Source: an uncultured Candidatus Binatia bacterium (GTDB lineage: Bacteria > Desulfobacterota > Binatia > HRBIN30). From it: a stretch of 64,000 bases of DNA. The notes beneath the pieces were generated by a model, which did not search any database, was not told the DNA's origin, and saw only the letters and a list, made by a program, of their open reading frames with translations. The DNA lies in NCBI GenBank assembly GCA_964524885.1, contig CAZGEJ010000026.1, positions 1,302 to 65,301 on the forward strand, in the 5' to 3' direction. The position numbers and the translations under genes are program-made. Position 1 is the first letter of the stretch, and each line of letters begins with the position of its first letter. This document shows positions 4,828 through 46,691 of the stretch, piece after piece.

Positions 4828-5612
4828 GCGGCGACGGTGTTGCGGGCGCCGAAGGCGATCGGCTGGGCGAGCCTGCCTTCGTCGGCAGCGGCGGTGGCGA
4901 GCCCGGCGGCATCGCGCCGCACGATGTGCGTCAGGGTGATCTCGACCTGTCCGTAACCGCGCGAGCCCTGACCGCCGATGGCGTCGTCGGCGACGAGTTG
5001 CAGGCCGCGCTGCAACAGCCCGAGCATCTCCTCCTCGTCGTCCTTGTCGTAGACGTTGAGCGCGACCTCGAAGCCGAAGCGGGCTCCGGCCGGGACGCGC
5101 TCGAACTGGCGCGGATTGGCCTTGCTCGTGAGGCGGTCGATCGCGACCTCGGTCTTCACCTCCGCGTAAGGAAGGTCGAGACCCGACCAGTTCGCCATTT
5201 CGGCCGCGCTTGCCGGCGTCATATGGGCGTCGCGGAAGAGAGCACGCGCGGCGCCGGCGTACGGTTTGTCGGGGTCGTAGGGGCGCGACTCGTCGGCGGG
5301 CACGCCGAAGACGAGGCACACCGCACAACCGCCACATTTGCAAGGAGCAAGTGTGATTCCTTGGACCGCGAAACCGTCGCAGCCTAGGCGGGCGCAGTCG
5401 ACCCGTTCGAGTAGGCTGCGCATCTTGCCCTTGAGGGAAGAGCCGGGGATGTACGGCCGGCGGGTCTTGGGATCGCGAACGACGACTTTATCGGCACCGC
5501 CGATGCCGAGGCCGGTGTCGTTGCCGCCGATGTGCATGCCGGTGAGCGCGGTGATCTCGCCGCGCACGAGGATCTTTTTCACCAATCGGGGAGGCTGGAT
5601 CGAAGTGCTCAT
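4824..5612 (-). CDS. csm3: Csm3 (Cas7 backbone subunit).
   Basis: Start MSTSIQPPRLVKKILVRGEITALTGMHIGG. It has the G-rich loop GSSLKGKMRS and the Csm3 zinc-knuckle-like CKCGGCAVCLVFG. There are 5 nt between the csm2 stop and its ATG, with a GAGG Shine-Dalgarno sequence inside csm2. Confidence 0.9.
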   Translation of the reverse strand: MSTSIQPPRLVKKILVRGEITALTGMHIGGNDTGLGIGGADKVVVRDPKTRRPYIPGSSLKGKMRSLLERVDCARLGCDGFAVQGITLAPCKCGGCAVCLVFGVPADESRPYDPDKPYAGAARALFRDAHMTPASAAEMANWSGLDLPYAEVKTEVAIDRLTSKANPRQFERVPAGARFGFEVALNVYDKDDEEEMLGLLQRGLQLVADDAIGGQGSRGYGQVEITLTHIVRRDAAGLATAAADEGRLAQPIAFGARNTVAA

Positions 5613-5617
5613 GGGTC

Positions 5618-6082
5618 TCACCCTCTGCGGTCGGCCTGACCGCTCTTCTCGTAGAACTTGTGGTACGCGACAACCGCTTCGGCGAAGTCGCAGAAGGCCG
5701 CAACCTGCGCCGGTTGCACTTCTTTCGTCAGCGGCCCGAACACAGCCCATAGGTGATTCGCGCTGTCCCGCTTTTTTTCGTTGGAGCGAGCGGTGAGATA
5801 GGCGAGACGCGAGCGCGTCATGCGGATCTGGGCGATCTGCCGCGCCGGGTCGGAGATATCACGGATCTTCGCGACCGATCCGTAGAAGTTGCGCACCTGA
5901 GAGGTCGTAAAGCCCGCTCGCGACAGGGCCTCGGCGAGTTTTTCTGCGCCTTCGTCGATTCCAGCCGGATCCCCGGCGAGCACGGCTTTCCGGATCGTCG
6001 CAACATCGAGCGTCGTCGGCGGCGGCGCGTTAGACCCGCGTCGAGCGTCAGGACTCCGTGTGTCCCTGAAATCGGCACTCAT
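5618..6082 (-). CDS. csm2: Csm2 (Cas11 small subunit).
   Basis: A 154-aa helical small protein sitting between cas10 and csm3. ATGA overlap with the cas10 stop. Position and size are typical of Csm2. Confidence 0.75.
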   Translation of the reverse strand: MSADFRDTRSPDARRGSNAPPPTTLDVATIRKAVLAGDPAGIDEGAEKLAEALSRAGFTTSQVRNFYGSVAKIRDISDPARQIAQIRMTRSRLAYLTARSNEKKRDSANHLWAVFGPLTKEVQPAQVAAFCDFAEAVVAYHKFYEKSGQADRRG

Positions 6083-8652
6083 CCTTCACTCCTTTTCTCT
6101 CGGCTGGCGAGGTCGGCCCATAGAGCAGCCGGCTGCAGCAGCCAGATCAGGTCGCGCGTCGCGCTCCAGCGGCGATCGCCCGACTCCCATTCCCTGCCGG
6201 GCAGGGCATGCATCAGTTTCTCCAGACGCGGTCGCAACTGGGGGTCGCTCATGCGGGCCAGTGCGTAGGCACGGTTCCAGGCCCAACGACCGCGGCGCAC
6301 CCGGTCCTCGACTTCACGTAGCGAGGCAGTGGGGCGTTCGCGGTGATCTCCTTCGAACGAGTCGCGGTAAAGACCAGCGATGCGCGCCAGACGGTGAATC
6401 CAACTGCGCGCGAGCGGCGAAACGACCGGCGCCGCCCGAGCATCCGTCGGAAGGTCGTCGGCGTCCCTGCCGCAGAGCGCCAGGATCTCGCGCGCAAGCG
6501 CCGCGACGACGTCGAGATCCTCCCAGCGCAGAGCATCCTCGAGGAAGGTCAGTCGGTCCTTGCCCTCGTGCTGCTTGGCGCGCTCTTCGAGTTCGCCTGC
6601 CGCCTTCGCCGCCGCCGCGATGGGCTGCCCTGAGCGCACCAGGGCCAGCCCGCCCGAGATGCCCCAGTTCGGGTTACCGGCGGTGAACTGGCTAAAGGCG
6701 CGTCGGATTTCTAGCGCCATCGCCGGCAGCACCGACCAAGCGCCGACGAGAAAGAGGTCGTCGCCGCCGGTGTAGATGATTTGGACTTTTCCGGCCCACG
6801 GCTCCCTTCCTGCCAGTACCGGCACGTGCCCACTGAAGTAGTAGGCCAGCAGCTTCGACAAGTTGGTGATGCGCGAGAAGGTGCGCTCACTCTCCGGCAG
6901 CCCCTCGCGAAAAATGCGGCCGAGCGAGTCGACGTCCATGCGCAGGACGCCGAGCCGTTCGATACCCTCGGACTCGTCGGCCAAGGTCTCGAAGTCCGGC
7001 GCTCGGCCGCTGCCGGCCGAGCCGAGGAAGAGTGCCACCGCACCGGTCGCCGCCGGCTGGAGGTTGGCTGGGGCGAAAACGTGGACCACGTGACGTGATC
7101 CGGCGTCTGCGAGGACGTCGGGGAGAGGCGCGCGTGAGACGAGGAATCCGCGGCGAAGACGCGGCGGTAGCGCGGTGTACCAGTTGCGCTCACGGCCGCC
7201 GAAGTGCTCGCGCAAGTTGTCGAGTTGAGCCCGCCAATCGTCACCGGCGGCAGCAACGAGGCACGTCGCATCGGGCAGCAGCCGGCCGAGTTGGATGAGT
7301 TCGCGACACTCCGGGCACGAAGTCCGCCCGTTCTCGGCGTCGTCGACGACATCGGCGTCGAGCTTACCGCAGGTGCCACAGAGGGTTCCCAGGCCCGGTT
7401 CGCCGAACGGAGCGAAGACCGCTTCGTAGTCCGCCTCGGCGGCACGAGCGAAGCGGCGGCGACGCTGATGCAACAGGTCGGCGGAGGCGGCCTCCCAGCG
7501 AGTCGCCACCCTGCCGGAGACGAAGTCCTCGCCGGACATCGCCGCGGCACCGACGGCAAAACCGAGCCGGCCGCCGTAGTGACGCTGGAGGTCGAGATCG
7601 ATTTCCGACGCGAGCGTGCGCAGCCGTTCCTCGGCGCGGCGCGGCAGCAGCAGCCAGATCTTGCCGCCACCGTTGTAAAGCGCGTTCACCGGCGGCAGGC
7701 CGAGTTCGTCGAGCAGGAACGACGCAATCCCCTCGGCGAGCAGCTGCAGCATGAACGAACGGCCGCGCAGGGCCCGCGCCGCGTTCTTCGAGGCGATGGT
7801 GTAGAGAAAGCGCTGGATCCCGGTCAGATCAGCGACGGCGAGCAGGTACCGCGTGTCGCCGCGGCGACGCACCTCCGCCTCGGCAAACCCGCCCGGTGAC
7901 CCTAGCAACTCGGCCGTCATGGCGGCGGCAATCGCGGCTGCGGCACGGCTGTGCTCGAAGAGCGAAACGTCGCGCGGCAAGGCGTTGGTAGCCGCCGGCA
8001 CACACCAAGCGTAGCGCTCGTACACAGCCAGAAAGGTCCGCAGGAAAACGCCGACGTCGCCGCGAGGAATCTTGCTCGTGTCCTGGCAGAGGGGATCGAA
8101 TAAGGAGCGGTACTCGCGCGCCGCCGCAGCAGCCGAGGGCTCGGCCGCGGAGATGGGAAACAGCGTCGGGCCGAAATCGAGCGCGGCGAACGGGACCGCG
8201 TAAGCGCCGGCATCGCCGCCGCTTACGCGGCCGAGAAGTGGCTCGAGGCGGCACGTCTGGACGAAATGCCAGCCTGCCTTGGCAGCGACCTCGTCGGGGT
8301 GACCGCGATCCATACCCGCGGAAAGACCGTCGGCCTCTGCGACGACGGCGTCGCCTACGTAAGTAGGCTTGTGGTGCCGCGCCGCCCAGCCGGCGACGCT
8401 GTCATCGTCGCCGCGACCGACGGCAGTGAGCCAGTCCGCGTGGTCGGCGATGAACTGCCATGTGTAGGCCGCGTGATGGTACTGCGCCCGCCCGTCCACC
8501 GTGCGAGTGAATAGGTGCTGGTTGGCGAGGCTCTTGTAGCGCTCGGGATCGGCCTCGGCGCGCTGGGCGAGTTTGCCGACGTCGTGGAGAAGGGCCGCCA
8601 AGGCGACCTGTTGCACCAACTCGCGCTGCTCTGCGGTCAACATCCGCTCCAC
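6079..8652 (-). CDS. cas10: Cas10/Csm1 with an intact HD nuclease motif and GGDD cyclase motif.
   Basis: N-terminal HD motif: ALLHDVGK. Treble-clef zinc-finger region: CGTCGKLDADVVDDAENGRTSCPECREL. Palm-domain GGDD: IIYTGGDDLFLVGAW. 857 aa. Shine-Dalgarno GGGAGGTGGAGCGG immediately 5' of the ATG at 8652. Confidence 0.92.
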   Translation of the reverse strand: MERMLTAEQRELVQQVALAALLHDVGKLAQRAEADPERYKSLANQHLFTRTVDGRAQYHHAAYTWQFIADHADWLTAVGRGDDDSVAGWAARHHKPTYVGDAVVAEADGLSAGMDRGHPDEVAAKAGWHFVQTCRLEPLLGRVSGGDAGAYAVPFAALDFGPTLFPISAAEPSAAAAAREYRSLFDPLCQDTSKIPRGDVGVFLRTFLAVYERYAWCVPAATNALPRDVSLFEHSRAAAAIAAAMTAELLGSPGGFAEAEVRRRGDTRYLLAVADLTGIQRFLYTIASKNAARALRGRSFMLQLLAEGIASFLLDELGLPPVNALYNGGGKIWLLLPRRAEERLRTLASEIDLDLQRHYGGRLGFAVGAAAMSGEDFVSGRVATRWEAASADLLHQRRRRFARAAEADYEAVFAPFGEPGLGTLCGTCGKLDADVVDDAENGRTSCPECRELIQLGRLLPDATCLVAAAGDDWRAQLDNLREHFGGRERNWYTALPPRLRRGFLVSRAPLPDVLADAGSRHVVHVFAPANLQPAATGAVALFLGSAGSGRAPDFETLADESEGIERLGVLRMDVDSLGRIFREGLPESERTFSRITNLSKLLAYYFSGHVPVLAGREPWAGKVQIIYTGGDDLFLVGAWSVLPAMALEIRRAFSQFTAGNPNWGISGGLALVRSGQPIAAAAKAAGELEERAKQHEGKDRLTFLEDALRWEDLDVVAALAREILALCGRDADDLPTDARAAPVVSPLARSWIHRLARIAGLYRDSFEGDHRERPTASLREVEDRVRRGRWAWNRAYALARMSDPQLRPRLEKLMHALPGREWESGDRRWSATRDLIWLLQPAALWADLASREKRSEG

Positions 8653-9122: not shown

Positions 9123-11708
9123 ATGAACACCTCGACGATCCGCAAACACCCGCCCATCCTCGATCCAACACCGGTCAGTCCCGACCAGATCGCCGCTCTC
9201 GCCGACTCGCTCGGCCTGCCGATCGTCAACCGCGTCGCTCTGCCCGAGCGCAGCGCACACCACGCTCCGGTGCCGGCCACACTCGCCGCTCCGTTGCGCG
9301 ATACTCTGTCGAATCGCTTCCCGGCCGGGCTTTATGCCCACCAGTCGGCGGCGATCGAGGCTTCGATTGCCGGCAATGACCTGTGTGTCGCCACCTCGAC
9401 CGCCTCGGGCAAAAGCCTCATCTTCATGAGCGCTGCCGCCCATCGGCTGTGCGCCGACCCGAAGGCTCGCGTCCTCGCGCTCTATCCGGCCCGTGCCCTC
9501 ATGCAGGACCAGATCGAGAAATGGCGGACCTTCCTTGCGCCGCTCGGACTCTCCGTCGGGCTCATCGACGGCGGCGTCGACACGCGGCAGCGCGCCGAGA
9601 TCGTCGAGCACAACCACGTCGTCTTGATGACCCCGGACGTTGCTCACGCCTGGGCGCTGTCGCGCGCCGGGGAGCGGCCCGTGCGCCGGTTCCTCGAGCG
9701 GCTCGACCTCGTCGTGCTCGACGAGGCGCACGTCTACGAGGGCGTGTTCGGCACCAACATGTCGTACTTCATGCGCCGCCTGGACATCGTCGCCGGCGGC
9801 TTCGACCTGATCGCCGCCACCGCGACCATTGGCAGGCCCGGCGCGTTCATCGAGAAACTCACGGGCAGGCAGGTGCAGACCTTCGCCGCCGACAGCGACG
9901 CCTCGCCGGCGCCGGCCCGAACCCTGCTTCTCGCCGACGGCCGGGGCAAGAAGCGCTTCCAGCGCATCGCCGACCTGCTCAAGGGCATCGCCCAGCAGCG
10001 CCTCGGTCGCTTCATCGCCTTCGGCGATTCGCGCCGCCTGGTGGAGCGCATGGTGGCCGCCGCCCGCCGCCCGGCCGATGCCGACACGGGCGCGGACCCT
10101 GATGACGCGGTCGACAACGAGGCTGATCTCTCGTTGGACAGCGACGCCGGCGAGATTCTGCCTTACCGTGCCGGCTACGAGACCGAGGACCGCAACGACA
10201 TCCAGAAGGCGCTGGCGCAAGGCCAACTGCTCGGCGTCGTGTCGACCAGCGCGCTCGAGCTCGGACTCGACATCGGCGACATCGACGTCGTCGTCCTGCT
10301 CAATCCGCCGACGAGCACCAAGGCCCTGTGGCAGAGGCTCGGCCGCACCGGGCGTGCCCGTCCGGGGGTGTGTATCGTCATCGACGACCGCGGCACGCTG
10401 GTGGCGCGTCCGCACGGGCTCGAGAGCTACCTGGCCCGCGAGGTCGAGCCGAACTGGCTCTACCTCGACAATCGCTACATTCAGTACGGCAACGCGTTGT
10501 GCGCGGCACAGGAGGCGCGCGTCTGCGGCATCGAGGCGGGCGCAGCGAAGGCGCTGGCGACGTTGCCGGAGAAGTTCCGGGCGATGGTGGAGAACGAGCT
10601 TCACCCGACGGAGGTGGTGCCGGACGATCTCTATCCGTTGAAGCAGCGGGCACAGGCCGGGCCGCACTACGAGTTTCCCCTGCGCAGCAGCATGGAGATG
10701 AACTTCAAGGTGCAGGGTCCGTTCGGCCGCTCCCTGGGCGAGCTGACCTACGGCCAGGTGCTGCGCGAGGCGTATCCGGGAGCGGTCTACTATTACATGG
10801 CCAAACCGTTCCGGGTGATTGCCTTCCGCTACCGGCAGCGCGAGATCCAGACGCGGCGCGACAAGCACCTGACGACACACCCGCTGGCGCAGACGATGGT
10901 ATTCCCGCGCTTCGCCGGCGGCACGCTGGCGCTGCGGCGCAGTGCGGGGGCGTTCGTCGCCGAGGCCGAGGTGCAGGTGAGCGAGCGGGTGATCGGCTTC
11001 AAGGAGATCCGCGGCAGGAACGAGGAGGAGCACCTCTACGGGCCGGAGTCCCCGTGGTCCCAGCGCGACCTGACGCGGTTCTTCCCGACGACGGGGGTGT
11101 GCTGGTTCTCGCCGCGCAAGGCCTTTCTCGCCGAGCGGGTGGGGGACGCGATTCTCGAGGCGTATTGCTCGACCTTCGGAGTGCAGCCCCGGGATCTCGG
11201 TGTCGGATTGTTCCATGCCAACGTGTCGCCGCTCGGCGGGGAGAAGGTACAGGGGCTGTGCGTCTACGACGCGACGCACGGCAGTCTGCGGCTGACGCAG
11301 CGGCTGGCAGAGAACTTTTCCGAGGTGATCGAGGCGGCACGGGCAACGGCTGCGGCGGAGGGAGAGCGCGAGCTCGCGCTCGAGCTCGAGGCCTTCGCCG
11401 CGGAGGTCGCCGGCCTCGCGCCGGCGCCGGTGGAGCACGTAAAGCTGCCTCTCGGCGAGGCCGTTGCCGACGAGTGGGTGACGGTGGTGGCGGCCGGAGG
11501 GCCGGCGATGTTGGTGACCGACGCCCGGACGGCGGAGGTGGTGGTCAAGGATCACCGCTATACGCCACGCGGACTTCTCTACGAGCTCGAGCCGGAGCAG
11601 CCGGGCGTGCGGTGGCTGGTGGCGGCCCGCGACGTGCAGCCGATCTTCGGCCGCAGCCCGCTGGCCAAGCTCAACCTGGAGACGGGAGAGATCCGGGAGG
11701 TGGAGTGA
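9123..11708 (+). CDS. SF2 DEAD/DEAH-box helicase (861 aa) with a ~300-aa C-terminal domain of unknown function (MrfA/DUF1998-like architecture, but no CxxC cluster).
   Basis: Helicase motif Q (YAHQSAAI), motif I (TSTASGKSLIF), motif II (VLDEAHVYEGVFG), motif III (ATATIG) and motif VI (QRLGRTGRAR). Shine-Dalgarno AAAGGAGA 5 nt before the ATG. Divergent from cas10. Confidence 0.85.
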   Translation: MNTSTIRKHPPILDPTPVSPDQIAALADSLGLPIVNRVALPERSAHHAPVPATLAAPLRDTLSNRFPAGLYAHQSAAIEASIAGNDLCVATSTASGKSLIFMSAAAHRLCADPKARVLALYPARALMQDQIEKWRTFLAPLGLSVGLIDGGVDTRQRAEIVEHNHVVLMTPDVAHAWALSRAGERPVRRFLERLDLVVLDEAHVYEGVFGTNMSYFMRRLDIVAGGFDLIAATATIGRPGAFIEKLTGRQVQTFAADSDASPAPARTLLLADGRGKKRFQRIADLLKGIAQQRLGRFIAFGDSRRLVERMVAAARRPADADTGADPDDAVDNEADLSLDSDAGEILPYRAGYETEDRNDIQKALAQGQLLGVVSTSALELGLDIGDIDVVVLLNPPTSTKALWQRLGRTGRARPGVCIVIDDRGTLVARPHGLESYLAREVEPNWLYLDNRYIQYGNALCAAQEARVCGIEAGAAKALATLPEKFRAMVENELHPTEVVPDDLYPLKQRAQAGPHYEFPLRSSMEMNFKVQGPFGRSLGELTYGQVLREAYPGAVYYYMAKPFRVIAFRYRQREIQTRRDKHLTTHPLAQTMVFPRFAGGTLALRRSAGAFVAEAEVQVSERVIGFKEIRGRNEEEHLYGPESPWSQRDLTRFFPTTGVCWFSPRKAFLAERVGDAILEAYCSTFGVQPRDLGVGLFHANVSPLGGEKVQGLCVYDATHGSLRLTQRLAENFSEVIEAARATAAAEGERELALELEAFAAEVAGLAPAPVEHVKLPLGEAVADEWVTVVAAGGPAMLVTDARTAEVVVKDHRYTPRGLLYELEPEQPGVRWLVAARDVQPIFGRSPLAKLNLETGEIREVE

Positions 11709-17106: not shown

Positions 17107-18666
17107 CTATCTCGGCGTCTCTGCGTCGCGGCGTTGGTCCGCATCGGCGCGCCGCTCCCACACTTGGAAACGAGCGCCGTCCCGATGCACGCGATAGTCG
17201 CGGCGCACCAGCGGCCACCAGCTCTTGGCCCGCGCCGTGAGATAGCGGCGATCGACGAAGATGAACCGCGCCTCACGCCGGATCGTTTGCCATGCTTCGT
17301 CACGCTCGGCCGGGGTGACGGATTCGTCCTCGAAGCGAATCAAGCGCGTCGGGTTGCGGCGTTGCGTCAGGTGCAACAGCCCAGCCGGCCAGCCGAAGAC
17401 CACCGTCGGACCGCCATCATCCGGCAAACTCCGCAGCTCTCGCTCCAATCGTCCGACCGTGCCGGCCCACTGCGGCTCGACGTAAATCGTGCCGCCATGT
17501 GGCAACTGGAACGGTACCGAACGAGTGAAGCGCAGCGCCGCCGTGCCCGTGTACTCCGCCGGCAAGCCGATGTCCCAACCGCGCCACAACCCCAGGGCCA
17601 GGGCCAACGGCGCCAGTACCCCGAACGCCGCCAGCACCCCGCCAAAGCGCGGCATCCGCCGCACGAACTCGGCAACCGCGGCGAACCACAACAAGAAGAT
17701 CACCGGACCGCCCTGCAGAAAGCGCGCGACCATCGAAATGCGCACCACCTGGTTCGCCGCCAGCAAGCTGAACACCGCCACCATCGCCAACACGCCGGCC
17801 CGCCGATCCCATGGCTCGCGCCAACCCTTCGCCACGAGATAGACCGGCCATCCCCCCGCGCTCGCGAAGGCGACCGACGGCAGCGCCAACGCCGGCCAAC
17901 CACCCGAAGCCGCGGCGACCCGCATCAGGTCGAGACGCCCATGCCCCTCCTGCATCGCCCGCAAGAACAACTGCTCGATCCACAGCCGAGGCTCGATGTC
18001 TCCGACCAAGTACCAACCCACGACGAACGCACCGGCCAACCCGCCGACGGCAACACACACCATGCGCTGCAACGCCTCGCCCCAAGCGCCGCGCCGGCTA
18101 CCGACTTCGTGCAACAGCGGCAGGAGTCCGGCGGCGCCCCAGGCGAACAACGCGACGTCGTGACGGAACCAAAAGCCGACACCGGCCAACACGCCGGACC
18201 ATACGAAACCCGCCATCTGCGCGCGCGCCAACGCTCGCGCCGCGGCCGACAACACCGCCAACGGCACGAGGGCATAAAAGGTCTTGTGCCACGGGCCCGG
18301 CATCAGCACGACGGCGATCGCCGCAGCAGCAGCCCAAGGCCACGGCATCAGGCGCCGCCCGAGCGCCAGGGTCAGCCCGACGACCACACCCCGCAGAAGG
18401 GCCCACATCCAGCGCACCGCACGCGCATCGCCCGCCGCTGCATCGAGGGTCGCCTGGGCCAAATGAAACTGGCCCGGCGGGTAGATCGAGACGAAATCAC
18501 GGTGGGCCACTTGCCCGGAACCGACCCGCGCCGCGCACTCCAGCAGCCACGCCTCGTCCTGGGTCAGATTGCCGTACGCCGCGTAGGCAAGGTGAAGGCC
18601 AGCCGCGGCAACGATGGCAGCCACGGTCACGACGGCGGCGAAGCGTGGTTCCTTTCCCGACGACAT
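17107..18666 (-). CDS. Polytopic membrane glycosyltransferase, GT-C fold (ArnT/PMT/GT39/GT83-like).
   Basis: 519 aa with many hydrophobic helices, Trp/Arg-rich loops and a C-terminal soluble domain. This is the typical dolichyl/undecaprenyl-phosphate-sugar transferase architecture. The 670-aa plus-strand ORF across the same region is Arg-rich shadow. Confidence 0.65.
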   Translation of the reverse strand: MSSGKEPRFAAVVTVAAIVAAAGLHLAYAAYGNLTQDEAWLLECAARVGSGQVAHRDFVSIYPPGQFHLAQATLDAAAGDARAVRWMWALLRGVVVGLTLALGRRLMPWPWAAAAAIAVVLMPGPWHKTFYALVPLAVLSAAARALARAQMAGFVWSGVLAGVGFWFRHDVALFAWGAAGLLPLLHEVGSRRGAWGEALQRMVCVAVGGLAGAFVVGWYLVGDIEPRLWIEQLFLRAMQEGHGRLDLMRVAAASGGWPALALPSVAFASAGGWPVYLVAKGWREPWDRRAGVLAMVAVFSLLAANQVVRISMVARFLQGGPVIFLLWFAAVAEFVRRMPRFGGVLAAFGVLAPLALALGLWRGWDIGLPAEYTGTAALRFTRSVPFQLPHGGTIYVEPQWAGTVGRLERELRSLPDDGGPTVVFGWPAGLLHLTQRRNPTRLIRFEDESVTPAERDEAWQTIRREARFIFVDRRYLTARAKSWWPLVRRDYRVHRDGARFQVWERRADADQRRDAETPR

Positions 18667-19679: not shown

Positions 19680-20966
19680 ATGACTCACGCGCTCGACTGG
19701 CCTTTTCGTATCGCCTGCGACTCCCTCGTGGCCCTCGGCAACAGCACTCATGACGGCAACACCCTATTCGCCAAGAACAGCGACCGCCCGGCGATGGAGG
19801 CGCAGCCGCTGACCCTCGTGCCGGCGGCACGGCATGCGCCTGGGGCCAGCGTCCGCTGCACCTACATCGAGATCCCACAGGTGGCGGCGACGGCACGTGT
19901 CCTCGGCTCGCGACCCTACTGGTGCTGGGGTTTCGAACACGGCCTCAACGAGCACGGCGTCGTCATCGGCAACCATACCATCTTCACCAAGGATCAGCCG
20001 GGCGGCGTAGGCCTCATCGGCATGGACCTGCTGCGCCTCGCCCTGGAACGCGCTGCCAGCGCCGAGGCAGCCGTCGAGGTCATCTGCGGACTCGTCGAGA
20101 CGTACGGCCAAGGAGGCTCCGGCTTCGCCGACAAGGACTGGGCCTACAACAACTCCTTTCTCATCGCCGACCGCACGCATGCCTTCGTGCTCGAGACGAG
20201 CGACCGCCATTGGGTGCGCCACCGCGTGCGCGATGTCGCCAGCTTGTCGAACCACGCCAGCGTCGGCACCGACTGGGACCGCACCTCGACCGGCCTGCTC
20301 GGACACGCCGTCGAGCAAGGGTGGTGGCCGGCGCAGGCGACACAGCGCTTCGACTTCGCCGCCGCCTACCGCGACACATCGCTGGTACCGGAAGCCATCT
20401 CCAGCGGCAGGTATGAACGCACGTGTGGGCTGCTCGGCAGCAACCGCGGCCACCTCGACGTGGCGACGTTGCGCGGCGCCCTGCGCGATCACTATGGAGA
20501 CCTGCTGCCGAGCCGCGACATCAGCGCCCTGCGGCCGATCGACGTCAGCGTCTGCATGCACGCCGAGCCCATCGGCACGACGACGGCGAGCGTGGTGGCG
20601 GCGTTGCCGCAAGACGACGAGGCGCCGCTGATCTACCGCGCCAGCATGGGTTCGCCCTGCAGCAGCCTGTTCGTCCCCCTGCTCCTCGACGCGGACTTGC
20701 CCGCCGTGTTCACGCGCGGCGGCGCCGAACCGAGCGCCGATTCCTTCTGGTGGCAGTGCAAACGCCTCGCGCAATGGGTGGAAGCCGACTGGGAAGCGCG
20801 CGCCGTCGACGCCCGCGACCTCCTCGACGCCGAGGAGCACCGCCTCGAACAAGAACTCGCCACGATGATCGAGTGCGGCGAAACCGACCGCGCCGGCGCC
20901 TGGGCCGCCGAAGCAGCACAACGGCTGATGGCGACGATGGAGGGGATACGAGAACGGAATCGGTAG
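19680..20966 (+). CDS. Peptidase family C69-like dipeptidase (Ntn-hydrolase); N-terminal region MTHALDWPFRIACDSL.
   Basis: RIACDSLVALGNSTHDGNTLFAKNSDRP resembles the C69/PepD N-terminal nucleophile region. The track ORF starts at TTG 19644; the ATG at 19680 is preferred. Confidence 0.65.
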   Translation: MTHALDWPFRIACDSLVALGNSTHDGNTLFAKNSDRPAMEAQPLTLVPAARHAPGASVRCTYIEIPQVAATARVLGSRPYWCWGFEHGLNEHGVVIGNHTIFTKDQPGGVGLIGMDLLRLALERAASAEAAVEVICGLVETYGQGGSGFADKDWAYNNSFLIADRTHAFVLETSDRHWVRHRVRDVASLSNHASVGTDWDRTSTGLLGHAVEQGWWPAQATQRFDFAAAYRDTSLVPEAISSGRYERTCGLLGSNRGHLDVATLRGALRDHYGDLLPSRDISALRPIDVSVCMHAEPIGTTTASVVAALPQDDEAPLIYRASMGSPCSSLFVPLLLDADLPAVFTRGGAEPSADSFWWQCKRLAQWVEADWEARAVDARDLLDAEEHRLEQELATMIECGETDRAGAWAAEAAQRLMATMEGIRERNR

Positions 20967-20990
20967 GGCCAAGGTTCAAGGGCCAAGGGC
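20942..20990. repeat. Direct-repeat copy A, GGGGATACGAGAACGGAATCGGTAGGGCCAAGGTTCAAGGGCCAAGGGCC; it overlaps the last codons of the C69 peptidase gene.
   Basis: 45/49 identical to copy B at 23880-23930 by eye alignment. Contains the GGGCCAA heptamer units. Confidence 0.8.
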
Positions 20991-21203
20991 CGCAAGCTCG
21001 CCGCCAGCGTGTGAGACGGAGCGGCGCTAGAAGCAGCACCCAGCCTGGGCTGCAGTCTCAGCCGTCGTTCGACGAAGTCGTCGCCTTATCGCTGTCTCGA
21101 ACGAATTTCCGATTGACAGCGGCCGCACCCGTCGTGGTAAGCGGGGTCAGCAGAACGGGGTGGGGGCCCCGCGCAGCATCCATCGTCGCACAGGAGGGGT
21201 ACG

Positions 21204-22493
21204 ATGCGATTCGCAACCATCGTGATCACACTTGGGCTGCACGTCGGCATCGCGGTCGCCGCGTCTACGCCGGAGCAGAAATGCGAGTCCGGCAAGCTCG
21301 ACACCGCTGGCAAGCTGTCGGCCTGCTTGGCTAAGGCGGAAAGCAAGATGATCAAGGGCGACGCCGCCGGCTACGGCGAAGCGATCGTCAAATGCACCGA
21401 CAAGTTCAGCGGTCAGTGGGCGAAGCTCGAGCAAGCCGCCATCGACGCGATGGCCAGCTGCCCGAGCACGATGGACGTCGCCGCCGTCGAGTCGTTCCTC
21501 ACCGCCTGCCACACCGCGCTGATCTCCAGTTTTGCCGGCGGCACGCTGGTCGACGATCCGATCAGTTGCGACGGCGACTACACCACTTGCGACACCGACC
21601 TCAACGACTGCACCACGGATGTCGATCTGTGCACCGCAGGCACCGCGGTCGCCGCCGACGTCGTCGCCGGAGCGACCTTCTCCAGCAGTGCCGGCATCGG
21701 ACTGACCGGCACGGCGGCGCTGCGCGACGACGTCATCGGCACGGAGGGCGCGCTCAGCTTCGCCCTGCCCGACGGCTACTACGAGGGAAAATCCTGCACT
21801 GCCGGCGACACCGACCTGCTGGCGGCCAACCTCAAATCGGGCGTCGAGATCTTCGACGTCTTCGGCAGCGCGCCGGATTACCAACCATTGAAATCGGCGC
21901 AGACGCTCTGCCACGACAGCAGCGGCTCAGCGGTCGCCTGCGGCGGCACCGGCCAAGACGGCGAACTGCAACGCGGCGCCGCCCGCCTCTACGTCACCAA
22001 TCCCGACGGCACAGTGAGCGATGTGCGCACCGGCCTGGTGTGGGAGAAGCTCAGCAACGACGGCGGCCTGCACGACAAAGACACGACCTTTACTTGGGCC
22101 AACGCCTTCAAGAAGGTGATGGTGCTCAACGGCGATGCCGCCGGCTGCATCGGCGCCGGCCACCCCGACGCCTGCTGCACCGGCGCCGGCACCGGCAGTT
22201 GCAGCTCGTTCGCAGGCGCCAGCGACTGGCGTCTTCCCAATCTCCAAGAGCTGCGCAGTCTGCTGGCCTACAGCTCGATCAATCCGGCGATCGACGCCGC
22301 CTTCAACTCCGGTTGCGTCGCCTCGTGTGCGGTGACCGCCTGCAGTTGCATCGTTCCGGGCCACCATTGGTCGTCGACCACCTACAGCGCCACGCCGGCG
22401 TCGGCCTGGTTCGTCGAGTTCAACCTGGGCGAGGCCAACCGCACCGCCAAGTCGGCCGCCTATCACGTGCGCGCCGTGCGCGGTGGCATCTGA
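21204..22493 (+). CDS. Secreted Cys-rich protein with a C-terminal DUF1566 (Lcl C-terminal) domain.
   Basis: Signal peptide MRFATIVITLGLHVGIAVAAS. C-terminal DWRLPNLQELRSL...WSSTTY...AWFVEFNLG...YHVRAVRGG. Shine-Dalgarno AGGAGG before the ATG. Confidence 0.8.
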   Translation: MRFATIVITLGLHVGIAVAASTPEQKCESGKLDTAGKLSACLAKAESKMIKGDAAGYGEAIVKCTDKFSGQWAKLEQAAIDAMASCPSTMDVAAVESFLTACHTALISSFAGGTLVDDPISCDGDYTTCDTDLNDCTTDVDLCTAGTAVAADVVAGATFSSSAGIGLTGTAALRDDVIGTEGALSFALPDGYYEGKSCTAGDTDLLAANLKSGVEIFDVFGSAPDYQPLKSAQTLCHDSSGSAVACGGTGQDGELQRGAARLYVTNPDGTVSDVRTGLVWEKLSNDGGLHDKDTTFTWANAFKKVMVLNGDAAGCIGAGHPDACCTGAGTGSCSSFAGASDWRLPNLQELRSLLAYSSINPAIDAAFNSGCVASCAVTACSCIVPGHHWSSTTYSATPASAWFVEFNLGEANRTAKSAAYHVRAVRGGI

Positions 22494-22516
22494 GCGTTCT
22501 CAGCATGGAGGGAGAC

Positions 22517-23815
22517 ATGATGAGAAAGTCGATCACACAGGTACTCGCACTGCTCGCCACCGCCAGCGTCGCCCTGGCGGTCACGCCGGAAGAAAAATGC
22601 GAGATCGGCAAACACGCCACCGCCGGCAAGCTCGCCGCCTGCCTAGCCAAAGCCGAAAAGAAGTTCGTCATCAGCGGCGATGCCGGCGCCTACGGCGAGG
22701 CACAACTCAAGTGCGCTGCAAAGTTCGAAACCAAGTGGCAGAAGCTCGAAGCCGCTGCCACCGCCGCGATGACCAGTTGTCCGAGCACCATGGATCAAAC
22801 CGCGGTCGCCGAGTTTCGTAACGCCTGCCACCAGGCAGTGGCCACCGCCCTCAGCGGTGGCACGCTGATCGCCGATCCAATCGCCTGCGCCGCCAGTTTG
22901 ACGAGCTGCACCACCGACCGCGATAGCTGCGCCAGCGACCTTGCCAGCTGCAACGGCGGTTCGGCGACAGCGGCCGACGTGTTGGCGGGCAAGACCTTCG
23001 CCAGTGCCGACGGATTGTCGATCACCGGCACCGTACCCGCTGGCGGCGCCGTCGTCGGCGCCGACGGCGAACTCGCCCCGGAGATTCCCGACGGCATCTA
23101 CAGCGGCAAAACCTGCACCGTCGCCGACTCCGATCTCGACGCCGCCAACGTCGTCGCCGGTGTCGATCTGTTCGGCGTCGCCGGCCAACACGCCATCGCC
23201 AAATTGCTGAGGTCCGGGCAGGCCGCCTGCCACGACAGCGCCGGCGGCAGCATCGCCTGCAGCGGCACCGGACAGGACGGCGAGGTGCAGGCCGGCGGCA
23301 CGCGCGCCTACACCGTCTCTGGCGACGGTACGCTCAGCGACGATCGCACCGGGCTGGTATGGGAGAAGCTCGGCGACAACGGCGGCATTCACGACAAAGA
23401 CTCCGTTTACTCGTGGCTGAACGCGTTCAACAAGATCCGCGTGCTCAACGGCGATGTTGCAGGCTGCCTTGCCACAGGCAATCCCTCGGCGTGCTGCACC
23501 GGCGCCGGCACCGGCAGCTGCACGCCTTTCGCCGGTTTCACCGATTGGCGGCTGCCCAACGTCGAGGAACTCGCCAGCCTGGTGCACTACGGCGCGGCCA
23601 ACCCGGCGATCGACGCCAGTTTCTCCGCTCCCTGCAGCGGCGGTTGCGCCAACACGAGCTGCAGCTGCGTCGCCACCGGCTCGGCCTATTGGACATCGAC
23701 GACCTTCCGCAACTCGCCGGCCTCGGCATGGTACGTGTCGTTCTTCGACGGCCAGATCTTCGGCTTCATCAAGGTGAATGGCCTGCACGTCCGCGCGGTA
23801 CGCGGCGGCGCGTAG
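22517..23815 (+). CDS. Secreted Cys-rich DUF1566 protein, paralogue of the preceding gene.
   Basis: MMRKSITQVLALLATASVALA signal peptide. The same CESGK...ACLAKAE N-terminal module and a DWRLPNVEELASL...YWTSTT...LHVRAVRGGA C-terminus. It sits in-frame inside the track ORF 21392..23815. Confidence 0.8.
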   Translation: MMRKSITQVLALLATASVALAVTPEEKCEIGKHATAGKLAACLAKAEKKFVISGDAGAYGEAQLKCAAKFETKWQKLEAAATAAMTSCPSTMDQTAVAEFRNACHQAVATALSGGTLIADPIACAASLTSCTTDRDSCASDLASCNGGSATAADVLAGKTFASADGLSITGTVPAGGAVVGADGELAPEIPDGIYSGKTCTVADSDLDAANVVAGVDLFGVAGQHAIAKLLRSGQAACHDSAGGSIACSGTGQDGEVQAGGTRAYTVSGDGTLSDDRTGLVWEKLGDNGGIHDKDSVYSWLNAFNKIRVLNGDVAGCLATGNPSACCTGAGTGSCTPFAGFTDWRLPNVEELASLVHYGAANPAIDASFSAPCSGGCANTSCSCVATGSAYWTSTTFRNSPASAWYVSFFDGQIFGFIKVNGLHVRAVRGGA

Positions 23816-23879
23816 ACCACGCCAGCCGCAAGGGCGCCGCACACCAGGTTGGGAGTGGTGTCTCCCGGGCAAGTAGGGA

Positions 23880-24002
23880 GGGGATACGAGAAGGGAACAG
23901 GTAGGGCCAAGGTTCAGGGGCCAAGGGCCAAGCACTCCATGACGTCACGCCTTGCGGTCGGCACGCGGTTCTGACCCCCAAACTGCCTTGGCCCTTGGCC
24001 CC
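23880..24002. repeat. Direct-repeat copy B (23880-23930) plus a downstream inverted partner CTTGGCCCTTGGCCCC (23987-24002) forming a long hairpin; 3' of the DUF1566 pair.
   Basis: GGGGCCAAGGGCCAAG at 23917-23932 is reverse-complementary to 23987-24002. Read directly from the sequence. Confidence 0.75.
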
Positions 24003-24011
24003 GTGACCGTC

Positions 24012-24039
24012 TTGATTCTTCGAGTAATTACTCTAAGAG
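24012..24039 (+). promoter_or_regulatory. Candidate promoter with an embedded 12-bp palindrome GAGTAATTACTC for the merR/men operon.
   Basis: TTGATT, then 16 nt containing GAGTAATTACTC, then TAAGAG. The merR ATG is 9 nt further on, implying a near-leaderless transcript. An operator palindrome inside the spacer is the MerR style. Confidence 0.35.
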
Positions 24040-24048
24040 TCAAAACGC

Positions 24049-24801
24049 ATGGAATACACGGTCCTCGAACTGGGACGGGCCACCGGCGCCAGCGTCGACA
24101 CCATCCGCTACTACCAGACCCTCGGCCTGCTGCCGGCACCGCGCCACGTCGGCCGTAACGCCGTCTACGACGACGCCCACGTCGAACGCCTCGAACGCAT
24201 CCAAGCCCTCTCCCAACGCGGCTTCTCCCTGAAGGCCATCCAAGCTGTCCTCGAAGCCGGCGACGGCCCCAGCTCCGATCGCGCCCTGCTCGCCGCCATC
24301 GCCGACAGCTCCGCCGAACCGCACTTCTCCAGCGCCGAACTCGCCGAGCAGCTCGACCTGCCGCGCTCCCTCGTCGCCATGATCGAGAAGTCCGGCCTCG
24401 TCGACGACACCCTCGCCGAGGAGCCCGACAAGAAATTCTCCAAGAGCGACGTCGACGTCGCCCGCGGCGCCCTGCGGCTGCTGCGCTACGGCTTCCCCAT
24501 CACCCGGCTCCTCGGCCTGGCGGTGAAACACGATCGCGCCGTGCGCCGCGTCGTCGACGAGGCCATCGACCTCTTCGACGAACACGTGCGCAAGGCCGCC
24601 GGTGGCGATGAAGACCCCGAAGCCGTGGCCGAAGCCTTCCGCGAATTGCTTCCCGTCGTCACCGCGCTGGTCGGCCACCACTTCCAGCGCGTGCTCGTCC
24701 ATCGCGCCATCAAACGTCTGAAAAAGAGCGGCAGCAAAGGCGCGCTCGAAACCGCCGTGCGCGAAAGCAAGCGCACGCGCATCGGATTCCGCTGGAAATG
24801 A
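24049..24801 (+). CDS. MerR-family transcriptional regulator.
   Basis: N-terminal HTH: YTVLELGRATGASVDTIRYYQTLGLLPAP (MerR signature). It overlaps the ubiE start by 4 nt. Confidence 0.85.
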   Translation: MEYTVLELGRATGASVDTIRYYQTLGLLPAPRHVGRNAVYDDAHVERLERIQALSQRGFSLKAIQAVLEAGDGPSSDRALLAAIADSSAEPHFSSAELAEQLDLPRSLVAMIEKSGLVDDTLAEEPDKKFSKSDVDVARGALRLLRYGFPITRLLGLAVKHDRAVRRVVDEAIDLFDEHVRKAAGGDEDPEAVAEAFRELLPVVTALVGHHFQRVLVHRAIKRLKKSGSKGALETAVRESKRTRIGFRWK

Positions 24802-25532: not shown

Positions 25533-26797
25533 ACTCGCCACGAACCAACCCGAGCGGTGCCGTCCACCTGCGCCACGAGAGCTTCGCCGACACCGGCGAC
25601 CTGCTCGCCTGCGCCGACGCCGCGGCGCTCGATGACGACGGCAGCGACGCCACTTTCTTCTGGCATGACCCGAGCACCGGCCGCTCCCTGCTCGCGGTCG
25701 GCGCGGTGCAGCACTTCATCGCCGATGGACCGAGCCAGCTCGCAGCGGTCGCGGCCCACGTGCGTGCCGCCCTCGGCGACGCCGACAGCCTAGGTTGCGG
25801 CGGCCTCGCCGCCGTCGGCGGCTTCGCTTTTGCCGACCCGTCGTCGAACCACGGCGGGCCACTGCCGGGTTGTTGGTTCTTCTTGCCACGACGTTTGTGG
25901 CGACAGGAGCACGGTACGACCCATGTCGTCGAGATCGACGCGCCGGCCGCACCTCTCCCACCGCTGCATCCGGCCGAGGTCTGCTCGCGCGAGGATGTCT
26001 GGGAGCCGCGGGTCGCCTCCGCCCTGGATCACATTCGCCGCGGCGACCTCGACAAGGTCGTGCTCTCGCGCCGGCGCCGCCTCCCCCTTCCCCAAGCTTC
26101 GCTGCGCCGCATGCTGCGGAGCTTCCGCGCGGCGCGTCCGGCCTGTGTCACCTTCGCCGTGCGACTCGGCGCGACGGCGTTTTTCGGTTCGACCCCCGAA
26201 TGGATGGTGCGGCTCGATGCGCGCGGCCTGCACGCCCCGGCACTCGCCGGCACCTACCCACGCGGCGACGACGCGTCGGCCGACGACGCCAACGCCGCCG
26301 CCTTGCTCGCCTGCATCAAGAATCGCCGCGAGCACCGCGCCGTCGTCGATGGCATCGTCCGCTCGCTCAAGAGCGTCGGTGTCCAGCCCGAAGTCGACGA
26401 CACGCGCGTCCTCCGCTTGCCCGAAGCGATGCACCTGCGCACCGAGATCACCGGGCGGGTGCCCAACGGCATCGATGCGCTGCGCCTGGCCGCCGCCTTG
26501 CACCCGACGCCCGCCGTGTGCGGCACCCCGCGCAGCACGGCCGCGGCGTTCCTCCGCGAGCATGAGGCCGAACGCGGCTGGTACACCGGCGGTGTCGGTT
26601 GGATGGACGGTCGCGGTCACGGCGAAGTGGTCGTCGGCCTGCGCAGCGCCTTGCGCGACGCCACGGGCCTGACGGTGTTCGCCGGGGCCGGCATCGTCGC
26701 CGGCTCCGACGCCGGTAGCGAACTCGCCGAGACGGAAATCAAGATGAACGCGTTACTGGCGCCGCTACGCACCCTCGAGGCGGAATCGGGCGACTGA
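25529..26797 (+). CDS. menF: Isochorismate synthase MenF.
   Basis: Chorismate-binding C-terminal core: FFGSTPE...GTYPRG...PTPAVCGTP...GWYTGGVGW...RSA. ATGA overlap with ubiE. Confidence 0.8.
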   Translation: MNSPRTNPSGAVHLRHESFADTGDLLACADAAALDDDGSDATFFWHDPSTGRSLLAVGAVQHFIADGPSQLAAVAAHVRAALGDADSLGCGGLAAVGGFAFADPSSNHGGPLPGCWFFLPRRLWRQEHGTTHVVEIDAPAAPLPPLHPAEVCSREDVWEPRVASALDHIRRGDLDKVVLSRRRRLPLPQASLRRMLRSFRAARPACVTFAVRLGATAFFGSTPEWMVRLDARGLHAPALAGTYPRGDDASADDANAAALLACIKNRREHRAVVDGIVRSLKSVGVQPEVDDTRVLRLPEAMHLRTEITGRVPNGIDALRLAAALHPTPAVCGTPRSTAAAFLREHEAERGWYTGGVGWMDGRGHGEVVVGLRSALRDATGLTVFAGAGIVAGSDAGSELAETEIKMNALLAPLRTLEAESGD

Positions 26798-28596
26798 TGG
26801 ACCTCGGGCGGCTCAACTACGAGGCGGCGGCCTTGCTGTTCGACGAATTCGCGCGCTGCGGCGTGCGCCACGTCTGCATCTCTCCCGGCGGTCGCTCGAC
26901 CCCGTTGGCCGCAGCCCTGGCCCGCTCTTCGTTGCGCCCTTGGGTGATCACCGACGAACGCGCCGCCGCCTTCTTCGCCCTCGGCTTGGCCCAAGCCGGC
27001 GGCGCGCCGGTCGTGCTGGTGTGCACCTCGGGCACGGCAGTCGCCAACTACGCCCCGGCCATCGCCGAAGCCGCCTTCGCCGAAGTGCCGTTGCTGGTGC
27101 TGACGGCCGATCGACCCGCGGAACTGCGCGACTGCGGCGCGGCTCAGACCATTCGCCAAGACGGCATCTTCGGACAGCACTGCAAATGGTCGCACGAAGC
27201 AGCGACGCCCGCCGACGGGGTCGATCTGCACGACTACTGGCGCAGTCTCGCCTGCCGCGCCCATGCCCGCGCCAGCGAAGGCCCCGCCGGCCCGGTGCAC
27301 CTCAATCTGCCGTTTCGCGAGCCGCTGGTGGCGGAGGATCCCGCACCGTCGTTGCCGCCAGGGCGCGCGGACGGACAACCCTGGGTCCGCATTCGCACCG
27401 GGACGCATCGAGCGAGCGGCGGCGATGTCGAGGCGTTGGCCGACATCCTACGGCACCGGCGCGGCTGCATCGTCGCCGGGCCACGCACGTCGGCGGCAAG
27501 TGTCGACGCCATCGCACGCTTGGCCGACCACCTCGGCTGGCCGATCCTCGCCGACCCGCTGTCCGGGCTGCGTCACGGCACCCACGCCGGCGCAGACTGG
27601 ATCATCGACAGCTACGACGTCTTCCTGCGCGACGCCGGCTGTGCCGAGTCCTTTGCGCCCGAGGTGGTACTGCGTTTCGGAGCTTTGCCAACGTCGAAGG
27701 CGCTGCAACGATGGCTGGCGGCGACGCCGGCGACGCAAGTCCTCGCCGGCGCCAGTCACAGCTGGGGGGATCCGTCCTTCCGGGTTGCCGAAGTGGTGTA
27801 CGGCGACGCCGGCGTCCTCTGTGACGACCTGCGCCGGAACCTTCCGGCCCACGCAACGACCGGCGGCTGGGCAAGCGCGTGGATCGAACGAGCGCGAGAG
27901 ACACGCCGCGCCATCGACGACCTATTGCTAGACGTTAAGGGGACAGTCCCCTTAACGGGACTGTCCCCTTCTCTGTGCCGAGGCGAGACACTCTTCGAAG
28001 GAGCCATCGCCGTGCATCTGCTGCGCGCCATGCCCGAGGGGGCGGCGCTCGTCGTCGGCAGCAGCATGCCCGTGCGCGACATCGACACCTTCGGCGGCGC
28101 GCAACCGCGCGCCCTGCGTCTCTTTTCCAACCGCGGCGCCAACGGCATCGACGGCGTCGTCGCCACCGCCCTCGGGGTCGCCGCGGCGCTCGACGCGCCC
28201 ACCTACTTGCTCATCGGCGACCTCAGCTTCCTGCACGACATCGGCGCCTTGCAAATCGCCGCGCGGCACCGGCTCGACCTGTGCATCGTCGTCCCCAACA
28301 ACGACGGCGGCGGTATCTTCTCGTACCTGCCCCAGGCTCGACTGACCGACGCATTCGAACCCTTCTTCGGCACCCCGCACGGGCTGAGCCTCGAACCCGC
28401 CGTGCGCATGTGCGGCGGTACGCATGTCACCGTCGACCATCTCGACGGCCTCGATGCGACGCTGCGGTCGTTCGATCGCGGCAGCGGCTTGCGTGTCATC
28501 GAGCTACCGACCGATCGGGCCTACAACGTCGAGCGCCATCGCCGCATCGTCAGCGATGTCGCGGCTAGGCTGCAACCGTTGCGCGAGGTCGCGTGA
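26797..28596 (+). CDS. menD: SEPHCHC synthase MenD (ThDP-dependent), carrying an in-frame palindromic insertion.
   Basis: MenD N-terminus: YEAAALLFDEFARCGVRHVCISPGGRSTPL. ThDP motif: GDLSFLHD...NNDGGGIF. 599 aa. Confidence 0.88.
   Translation: MDLGRLNYEAAALLFDEFARCGVRHVCISPGGRSTPLAAALARSSLRPWVITDERAAAFFALGLAQAGGAPVVLVCTSGTAVANYAPAIAEAAFAEVPLLVLTADRPAELRDCGAAQTIRQDGIFGQHCKWSHEAATPADGVDLHDYWRSLACRAHARASEGPAGPVHLNLPFREPLVAEDPAPSLPPGRADGQPWVRIRTGTHRASGGDVEALADILRHRRGCIVAGPRTSAASVDAIARLADHLGWPILADPLSGLRHGTHAGADWIIDSYDVFLRDAGCAESFAPEVVLRFGALPTSKALQRWLAATPATQVLAGASHSWGDPSFRVAEVVYGDAGVLCDDLRRNLPAHATTGGWASAWIERARETRRAIDDLLLDVKGTVPLTGLSPSLCRGETLFEGAIAVHLLRAMPEGAALVVGSSMPVRDIDTFGGAQPRALRLFSNRGANGIDGVVATALGVAAALDAPTYLLIGDLSFLHDIGALQIAARHRLDLCIVVPNNDGGGIFSYLPQARLTDAFEPFFGTPHGLSLEPAVRMCGGTHVTVDHLDGLDATLRSFDRGSGLRVIELPTDRAYNVERHRRIVSDVAARLQPLREVA
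27935..27970. repeat. Perfect 21-bp palindrome TTAAGGGGACAGTCCCCTTAA followed by CGGGACTGTCCCCTT, located inside the menD coding sequence.
   Basis: Read directly. It encodes ...VKGTVPLTGLSPS... in the menD frame, with AT-ending codons (CTA TTG CTA GAC GTT AAG) that are atypical for this genome. Confidence 0.85.
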
Positions 28597-45730: not shown

Positions 45731-45775
45731 GCGCGCGACGCCACGACGTGCCGAACGTTGCCGGCGTCGACCGAC

Positions 45776-46666: not shown

Positions 46667-46691
46667 GGCTAAGGCTTAGGCTGAGGCTCAG
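46658..46691. repeat. AGGCTNA heptamer array GAAGGCTAAGGCTAAGGCTTAGGCTGAGGCTCAG overlapping the SDR stop codon.
   Basis: Tandem 6-7-nt units seen directly. Same family as 48936-49047 and 50499-50571. Confidence 0.75.

Follow-up and report, generated by a model that had tools for sequence, protein, structure and literature searches.

Short tandem repeats of G-rich heptamers are a described class of intergenic sequence in bacteria. Known members include (GGGAATC)n in Xanthomonas and (GGGGAYT)n in Nostoc, with inverted pairs (Rehm et al. 2015, PMC4692102), as well as the TAACTGA repeats of the Beggiatoaceae (PMC4679880). In the literature retrieved, such repeats are treated as slippage-prone or G-quadruplex-forming sequences, not as insertion sites. 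Repetitive extragenic palindromic (REP) sequences are dispersed copies of one palindromic sequence that are moved by RAYT transposases (PMC3116915). The locus considered here lies in a stretch of 64,000 nt from an uncultured Candidatus Binatia bacterium (assembly GCA_964524885.1, contig CAZGEJ010000026.1, positions 1,302 to 65,301; hereafter the window). Two tandem genes encoding DUF1566 (Lcl-like) proteins are bracketed there by direct repeats, A and B, the first of which runs out of the 3′ end of a C69-family peptidase gene into a heptamer array. Comparison with relatives indicates that the two-gene segment was probably inserted in this lineage and that A and B are an unusually long duplication of its target.

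A repeat search of the window returned the pair as 62 nt at 87 % identity (20930–20991 and 23868–23929), with a well-aligned core in which 49 of 53 positions are identical at an offset of 2938 nt. An earlier note on this DNA had reported 49-bp repeats around two DUF1566 paralogues, and over the span it gave the copies do agree at 45/49 positions. Both copies are two-part, a purine-rich head of 27 nt (GGAGGGGATACGAGAA[C/G]GGAA[TC/CA]GGTA) being followed by an irregular heptamer array with units in the order GGGCCAA-GGTTCA[A/G]-GGGCCAA-GGGCC (GGGCCAA/GGTTCAA/GGGCCAA/GGGCC in copy A). Exact matches to the first 16 nt occur in the 64 kb only at A and B; with up to three mismatches allowed, shuffled sequence yields a mean of 0.36 matches. 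The source's own contig in the Logan assemblies (L001) continues through copy A into DUF1566-1.

The head belongs to the peptidase gene, whose native 3′ end it forms. Translation from the true start, ATG 19680, gives a product of 428 aa, and copy A holds the last nine codons (EGIRERNR) with the TAG stop at 20964–20966, as the earlier note had observed. Homologues of the peptidase include proteins from Binatia metagenome-assembled genomes (MAGs), and the C-terminal tail is variable among them; between close relatives the head differs at 5/27 nt, against 6 % for the whole gene. A 30-mer of the head, allowing up to six substitutions, was found in 0.9 Mb of DNA only at orthologous peptidase ends (L001 and L125–L127), it was upstream of none of 124 arrays from other genomes, and a 26-nt pattern shared by all five known repeat copies had no match in a scan of metagenomes. 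Because the head is confined, in the DNA searched, to orthologous peptidase ends, copy B is duplicated target sequence and not the end of a mobile element. It is non-coding, with an in-frame stop upstream; similarity to the peptidase ends at about 23868, the weak similarity reaching back to that position, and its array extends to 23932. Since the head is the peptidase's own 3′ end and the array half of the repeat is generic (see below), target duplication is the reading favoured for the pair.

The filled site can be set against an empty one. L125 is a contig of 2.8 kb in the Logan k-mer assemblies and derives from a different sequencing project; it is 93 % identical to the window over 2.7 kb, its peptidase being 96 % identical. 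In L125 the peptidase tail is followed by one head, one array and then directly by ACTCCATGACGTCACGG...CCCCAAACTATCTTGGCCCTTGGCCC, which is the spacer and inverted array found after copy B in the window (blastn against 23877–24001, 80.8 % over 125 nt). L125 thus lacks the 2,938-bp unit and carries a single-copy empty site, which sets the exact boundaries of the indel. A more distant relative, the syntenic 207-kb JGI contig L117 (peptidase 65 % identical at the amino acid level), has the peptidase, a gap of 100 nt and then MerR-UbiE-MenF-MenD-MenH-MenB-MenA-MenC-MenE, with the same MerR palindrome and with no DUF1566 gene, head or array. Six of the seven flanking genes tested (GT2, peptidase, MerR, UbiE, MenF and the luciferase-like protein) have cluster-mates at 90 % or more in other assemblies, and all three DUF1566 genes of the window are singletons at 90 % clustering. 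The earlier note had taken the repeats for the footprint of an insertion or recombination event, and this comparison bears that out. The palindrome at the MerR promoter shows where the ancestral intergenic region ends, intact, on its right-hand side. It spans 40 nt (CGTCTTGATTCTTCGAGTAATTACTCTAAGAGTCAAAACG) directly upstream of the MerR-family gene that heads the menaquinone (men) operon, has its L117 counterpart at 11345–11376 and is probably a MerR operator inside its own promoter.

The same end product, a single copy followed by the sequence downstream of B, would result if the cassette were ancestral to both lineages and L125 had lost the segment by homologous recombination between A and B, leaving one hybrid copy. 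RecA-dependent deletion is possible between direct repeats of about 50 bp. We nevertheless regard such a loss as improbable, because the outgroup L117 also lacks the genes and an earlier insertion that made A and B would still be needed. The substitutions also run against it. Over 49 sites A and B differ at four, and each differs from L125 at five; A and B share three states that L125 does not, and at the four sites variable between A and B, L125 matches each copy twice. In the left half, A differs from L125 at five sites and from B at three, the reverse of what a hybrid copy should give. This pattern fits a duplication younger than the divergence from the ~93 % relative, each copy having since acquired two substitutions.

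We therefore consider it probable that A and B are a target duplication of 53–62 bp, produced when a 2.9-kb segment with two DUF1566 genes was inserted in this lineage. The insertion point would have lain just past the heptamer array that follows the peptidase stop. This array was the 5′ arm of a hairpin, completed by a spacer and an inverted array, in the interval from the peptidase to the MerR/menaquinone operon. The stretch duplicated would be the last nine codons of the peptidase, its stop and the array. Copy A would have stayed with the peptidase gene and lost its hairpin partner, while the native spacer, inverted array and MerR promoter would have remained with copy B. The peptidase would as a result now be without its 3′ hairpin, the hairpin following DUF1566-2 instead, with the MerR promoter untouched. 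The array of copy B and the inverted array, a pairing that the earlier note had pointed out, fold as a long hairpin (minimum free energy −78.3 kcal/mol, z = −2.8), and copy A, which has no inverted partner, shows no excess folding (z = 0.03). The copy B hairpin, with a loop of 54 nt, lacks a T-run, and a consensus scan for intrinsic (Rho-independent) terminators, a GC-rich hairpin with a U-tract, found none at A or B.

How the duplication arose is a separate question. The left junction is within the array, and array length differs among relatives (three units in L125, at least four in L126 and L127, 3.9–4.3 in the window), which is typical of slippage-prone repeats. Recombination between arrays alone would be insufficient, because the peptidase tail is duplicated too. 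Site-specific integration is another candidate, A and B being in that case attL and attR of a small non-autonomous element (an islet like a cis-mobilizable element, CIME, or a decayed island) moved by a tyrosine or serine recombinase acting in trans, with the peptidase 3′ end restored. The repeat does begin in the last codons of the target and include its stop, beyond the displaced copy B the native downstream DNA resumes, and a repeat of ~53 bp is within the range of att identity segments. Against this, neither the insert nor the rest of the window has integrase, transposase or recombinase domains among its Pfam-scanned genes; the differences between A and B are not partitioned about a crossover point; and searches for phage, plasmid or viral relatives of the cargo gave nothing beyond a weak plasmid match (33 % identity over 32 % of the protein). 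An att site is judged unlikely because the repeat consists of a fast-evolving tail and an unstable array, a poor choice of conserved target. No known transposase leaves a duplication of 53–62 bp, the one here being far longer than theirs.

Because array recombination, an att site and a transposase each fit poorly, our tentative preference is for a single illegitimate event, break-repair or template switching, at an array prone to hairpins or slippage, in which about 60 bp of target would have been copied to each side of the DNA being captured. Campbell-type homologous integration, with an incoming circle bringing the 60 bp of homology, would be less likely than break-repair and is, in our estimate, an outside chance. 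Both the direction of the event (a gain here and not a loss in the relative) and its mechanism are what we infer from these comparisons, and several points weigh against the account as a whole. Only one contig (L125) crosses the empty junction, L126 and L127 ending within the array. The polarity depends on a distant outgroup (65 % aa) and a handful of substitutions. The duplication exceeds by far the length of those that transposases are known to make, and a bacterial precedent for the break-repair route was not found in the literature retrieved. The searches covered the 64-kb window, and further head copies, a donor locus or a recombinase are possible elsewhere in the source genome.

The inserted segment is host-like in composition (GC 0.666; GC at third codon positions 0.83–0.86). 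As the earlier note had described, the products of its two genes share a CExGK...ACLAKAE module in a Cys-rich N-terminal part and a C-terminal DUF1566 domain; both N-termini are signal-peptide-like. Alignment and Pfam agree, the three DUF1566 genes of the window scoring 92.3, 87.3 and 79.1 bits with Lcl_C (PF07603) against a gathering cut-off of 34.9. DUF1566-1 and DUF1566-2 are 53 % identical in amino acid and ~73 % in nucleotide sequence, and DUF1566-1 has its best outside homologue at 55 % identity. Being far more diverged than the repeats that flank them, the two genes must have arrived as an already-diverged pair. The event itself is old, because four substitutions separate A and B, and since these copies differ at four sites and the cargo genes are only 53 % identical there is no sign of ongoing mobility. 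No relaxase is found in the insert or the window, and no RAYT-type gene was seen in the window. No inverted repeat joins the insert ends (20992 and 23876) among the 25 listed of 96 pairs, no insert-end sequence is repeated elsewhere in the window, and no non-coding similarity to the flanks of homologues was found. The gene downstream of the peptidase on contig L118 shows no relatedness to the cargo genes. The features of the locus, together with those of the third paralogue and the remaining arrays, are collected in Table 1.

Table 1. Coordinates of the features at the DUF1566 loci and of the other short-period arrays in the window
Feature	Position	Strand	Description
C69-family peptidase (secernin-like)	19680–20966	+	Pfam Peptidase_C69; translation; exact protein P0001 on record
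Repeat copy A	20939–20991	+	Head 20939–20966, native peptidase 3′ end and stop; array 20965–20991
Inserted segment, ~2.9 kb	20992–23876	+	212-nt leader, two DUF1566 genes, 61-nt tail; absent from L125 and L117
DUF1566-1	21204–22493	+	Secreted, Cys-rich; Lcl_C domain residues 269–426; Pfam E = 3e-26
DUF1566-2	22517–23815	+	Paralogue of DUF1566-1; Pfam Lcl_C E = 1e-24
Repeat copy B	23877–23929	+	Non-coding duplicate of peptidase tail and array
Spacer	23933–23985	+	Native sequence downstream of peptidase; homologous to L125 sequence after single repeat copy
Inverted heptamer array (CCTTGGC ×2.3)	23986–24001	−	Pairs with copy B array; also at L125 end
Palindrome at MerR-family promoter region (gene 24049–24801)	24008–24047		Inverted-repeat search, fold; kept in L117
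(AAGGCT)5 array	46659–46688	+	Left flank of DUF1566-3; holds TAA stop of SDR gene 45758–46666
DUF1566-3	47139–48350	−	Pfam Lcl_C; distant paralogue, 35 % aa identity to DUF1566-1
(AAGGCTA)4.7 and partly complementary (GAGCTTT)7.6 arrays	48936–49044	+	Right flank of DUF1566-3; hairpin, fold z = −2.2
Palindromic (AGGCTG/AGCCTC) array	50502–50560		Between divergent genes, 23 nt upstream of CbbQ/NorQ-like AAA gene
(AGGGCCA)5.3 array	54685–54721	+	Between convergent VWA and fatty-acid-hydroxylase genes; no DUF1566 nearby
(GCCAAGG)3.9 and (TGCCTTG)5 arrays	62407–62499		Around GC-rich hairpin, fold z = −2.3; no DUF1566 nearby

The array half of the repeat is generic. The motif GGGCCAAGG occurs nine times in the window against 0.51 expected, and heptameric arrays called by Tandem Repeats Finder are at 20965, 23903, 23986, 48936, 48992, 54685, 62407 and 62465. 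Counted with the other short-period arrays, these make up seven intergenic loci (20965, 23903/23986, 46659, 48936/48992, 50502, 54685 and 62407/62465), six of which are beside the 3′ end of a gene (for 62407–62499, downstream of a transglutaminase-like gene) and three of which have no DUF1566 gene nearby. The array at 50502–50560, self-complementary (AGGCTGAGGCTCAGGCTAAGGCTGAGGCTTAGCCTGAGCCTTTGCCTCAGACTTAGCC) and in a divergent promoter region, is the only one away from gene 3′ ends. Beyond the window, 185,579 species-representative genomes were scanned for GGGCCAAGGN5GGGCCAAGG, which returned at least 114 stretches; among the matches listed are Gemmatimonadaceae, Phycisphaeraceae, Chromatiaceae, Acidobacteriota, Planctomycetes, Verrucomicrobia, actinomycetes and others. 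Many of the listed matches have the array-spacer-inverted-array layout seen in the window, and in unrelated high-GC phyla an inverted (CCCTTGG/CCCTCGG)n partner often lies 20–150 nt downstream. In a survey for split array pairs, 48 of 84 forward arrays in other genomes were orphans. This cross-phylum spread points to convergent origin or to a common structural or functional constraint. The exact 14-nt array sequence did not occur in the bacterial literature searched, and no Rfam family matched the window or any of nine array-bearing loci.

It may then be asked whether A and B are simply members of a dispersed REP-like, terminator-like or miniature inverted-repeat transposable element (MITE)-like family at gene ends that bracket the two genes by coincidence, the outcome that would make the repeat a generic element. 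For the array half there is a good deal to say for this: units of GGGCCAA are found again at 54685 and 62407, and a related AAGGCT-type array at 50502, all without DUF1566 genes; the heptamer array is present in more than 100 loci across unrelated phyla, often as array-spacer-inverted-array hairpins; and similar G-rich heptamer repeats are known in Xanthomonas and Nostoc (PMC4692102). It does not extend to the head. The combination of head and irregular unit order (GGGCCAA-GGTTCAR-GGGCCAA) is found, across the window and the 0.9 Mb searched, only in A, in B and at orthologous peptidase ends, and the single copy in L125 runs into the flank of B, as it should for a duplication-linked indel. A coincidental bracketing is thus largely refuted and very improbable. 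As no arrays were found in syntenic L117 or around the DUF1566 homologues of L123 and L124, there is no general DUF1566-array association across genomes either; the arrays are lineage-specific in their occurrence and do not travel with the DUF1566 genes.

A separate observation concerns Gemmatimonadaceae MAGs (L005, L019, L029, L043, L051, L055, L067, L084 and L090), in which (GGGCCAR)3-4 arrays form part of a conserved composite element of ~150 nt: the array, GGAAAGGC, a hairpin, GCTCATCNGATGAGC, a second hairpin, GCCTTTCC and (CCCTTGGCC)3-4. The inner hairpins vary in sequence, each remaining self-complementary by eye. Several species carry the element, each genome having it on several contigs; it has no Rfam match and could be a REP/MITE-like element or a structured RNA.

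The third paralogue, DUF1566-3, was also said by the earlier note to be flanked by related heptamer arrays. Arrays in the same orientation do flank it (46659–46688 and 48936–48968), the right-hand hairpin adjoining the 3′ end of the luciferase-like gene 49057–49962 on the minus strand; the unit here is AAGGCT(A) and not GGGCCAA, and no similarity of the kind seen in A and B extends past the arrays on the two sides. Contig L121 of a relative (94 % identity over 1,246 nt) matches the window through the left array and then diverges completely, its 39-nt tail after the array having no match anywhere in the window. The array itself is conserved at the SDR gene end in L121, in a different unit order. 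DUF1566-3 is a singleton whose flanking genes have cluster-mates. Taken together, these comparisons are suggestive of a second insertion at an array site. At the same boundary (46640–46690 against L121 1195–1246), the TAA stop of the SDR gene is within the first AAGGCT unit here, and L121 has a TGA 9 nt earlier. The stop thus differs between close relatives because of the array, and arrays that abut stops can remodel protein C-termini, as at the peptidase tail too.

Both DUF1566 loci of the window are array-flanked, lineage-specific and between conserved genes. That arrays mark variable DUF1566 loci draws some support from the singleton status of DUF1566-3 and the divergence of L121 at the end of the left array. 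The larger proposal, that the repeats delimit mobile or recombining cassettes and drive surface-protein variation, is weakly supported, the repeat being a duplicated target at a generic array and no recombinase having been found in the window. A variant in which heptamer-array hairpins at gene ends are preferred, recombinase-independent capture sites for accessory genes in this lineage and so diversify the DUF1566 repertoire would involve breakage or fork stalling at an array, after which foreign or ectopic DNA might be copied in and the array and adjacent target duplicated. We hold this to be quite improbable.

The window has several other features. Within menD (26797–28596), a 48-nt palindromic element (TTAAGGGGACAGTCCCCTTAACGGGACTGTCCCC...) at 27933–27980 is in frame and adds 16 residues (DVKGTVPLTGLSPSLC) that MenD of L117 does not have. 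Its GGGGACAGTCCCC palindrome recurs at 46846, at the DUF1566-3 locus, the motif having six matches against 0.47 expected, and it has the look of a small palindromic insertion element that a coding sequence can accommodate. A 519-aa protein, encoded upstream of the GT2-peptidase pair at 17107–18666 on the minus strand, is without a Pfam match and stands alone at 90 % clustering; L125 and L126 each carry an orthologous fragment and start inside it, so the protein may be fast-evolving or fragmented in assemblies. A type III CRISPR-Cas effector module occupies positions 1–8652 on the minus strand, with a Cas10/Csm1-like gene (6079–8652) and RAMP proteins (2495–4060 and 4824–5750); no CRISPR array is evident in the window. 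Coding tandem repeats at 57181–57542 (93 nt ×3.9) and 57965–58248 (111 nt ×2.6), unrelated to the heptamer arrays, are inside a minus-strand gene (55661–58909) for a 1,082-aa Cys-rich protein with RCC1 repeats and DUF4215.

The event at the peptidase locus is a real and fairly ordinary gene gain, an old and static indel that belongs to accessory-genome turnover and not a demonstrated mobile cassette system. It is an instance of two known phenomena, the accessory-gene indel flanked by direct repeats and the intergenic heptamer repeat, the unusual part being the length of the target duplication. What the locus offers is a boundary-resolved gain of secreted DUF1566/Lcl-like proteins in an uncultured high-GC bacterium, with filled site, empty site and outgroup available. 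A duplicated target longer than 50 bp, with a stop codon and a simple-sequence array in it, does not fit the standard scars of transposases and integrases, and is a hint of DNA capture at array hairpins acting as fragile sites. The (GGGCCAA)n array-spacer-inverted-array hairpins, spread across many unrelated phyla, are apparently undescribed; terminator, mRNA stabiliser, G-quadruplex and recombination hot spot are candidate roles.

Among known systems, att-flanked islets and islands, CIMEs included, resemble the locus in having direct repeats of tens of bp around accessory genes, in presence or absence between close relatives, and in a left repeat that overlaps the 3′ end and stop of the target with a right repeat followed by native DNA. 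They differ in that here neither insert nor window has an integrase or relaxase, the repeat derives from the target and evolves fast, the cargo is only two genes and the composition is host-like. Integron cassettes likewise are promoter-poor small gene units with structured recombination sites of 50–140 bp and variable gene content; here, however, there is no site between the two genes and no IntI or attI, and the repeat includes coding sequence of the neighbouring gene. No attC cores (RYYYAAC, GTTRRRY) are visible by eye in A or B, no pattern search having been run. Transposons, insertion sequences and MITEs are set apart by duplications of 2–15 bp against 53–62 bp here, and the insert has neither terminal inverted repeats among the pairs listed nor a transposase domain.

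REP sequences, together with bacterial interspersed mosaic elements (BIMEs) and REP doublets forming hairpins (REPINs), are similar as short structured hairpin repeats at gene 3′ ends with possible roles as terminators, mRNA stabilisers or recombination hot spots. Unlike them, the arrays here are locally generated tandem units in unrelated flanks, and head and array together occur twice in the window and, in the DNA searched, otherwise only at orthologous sites. The arrays belong with the intergenic heptameric repeats, of which the cyanobacterial short tandemly repeated repetitive (STRR) heptamers are further members: units are of 7 nt, typically in about four copies, inverted pairs able to form stem-loops are common, the repeats are frequent within a genome, and length and sequence differ between close relatives. 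Within that class they are distinguished by their unit, GGGCCAA (and AAGGCTA), and by arrays that abut or overlap the stop codons of neighbouring genes.

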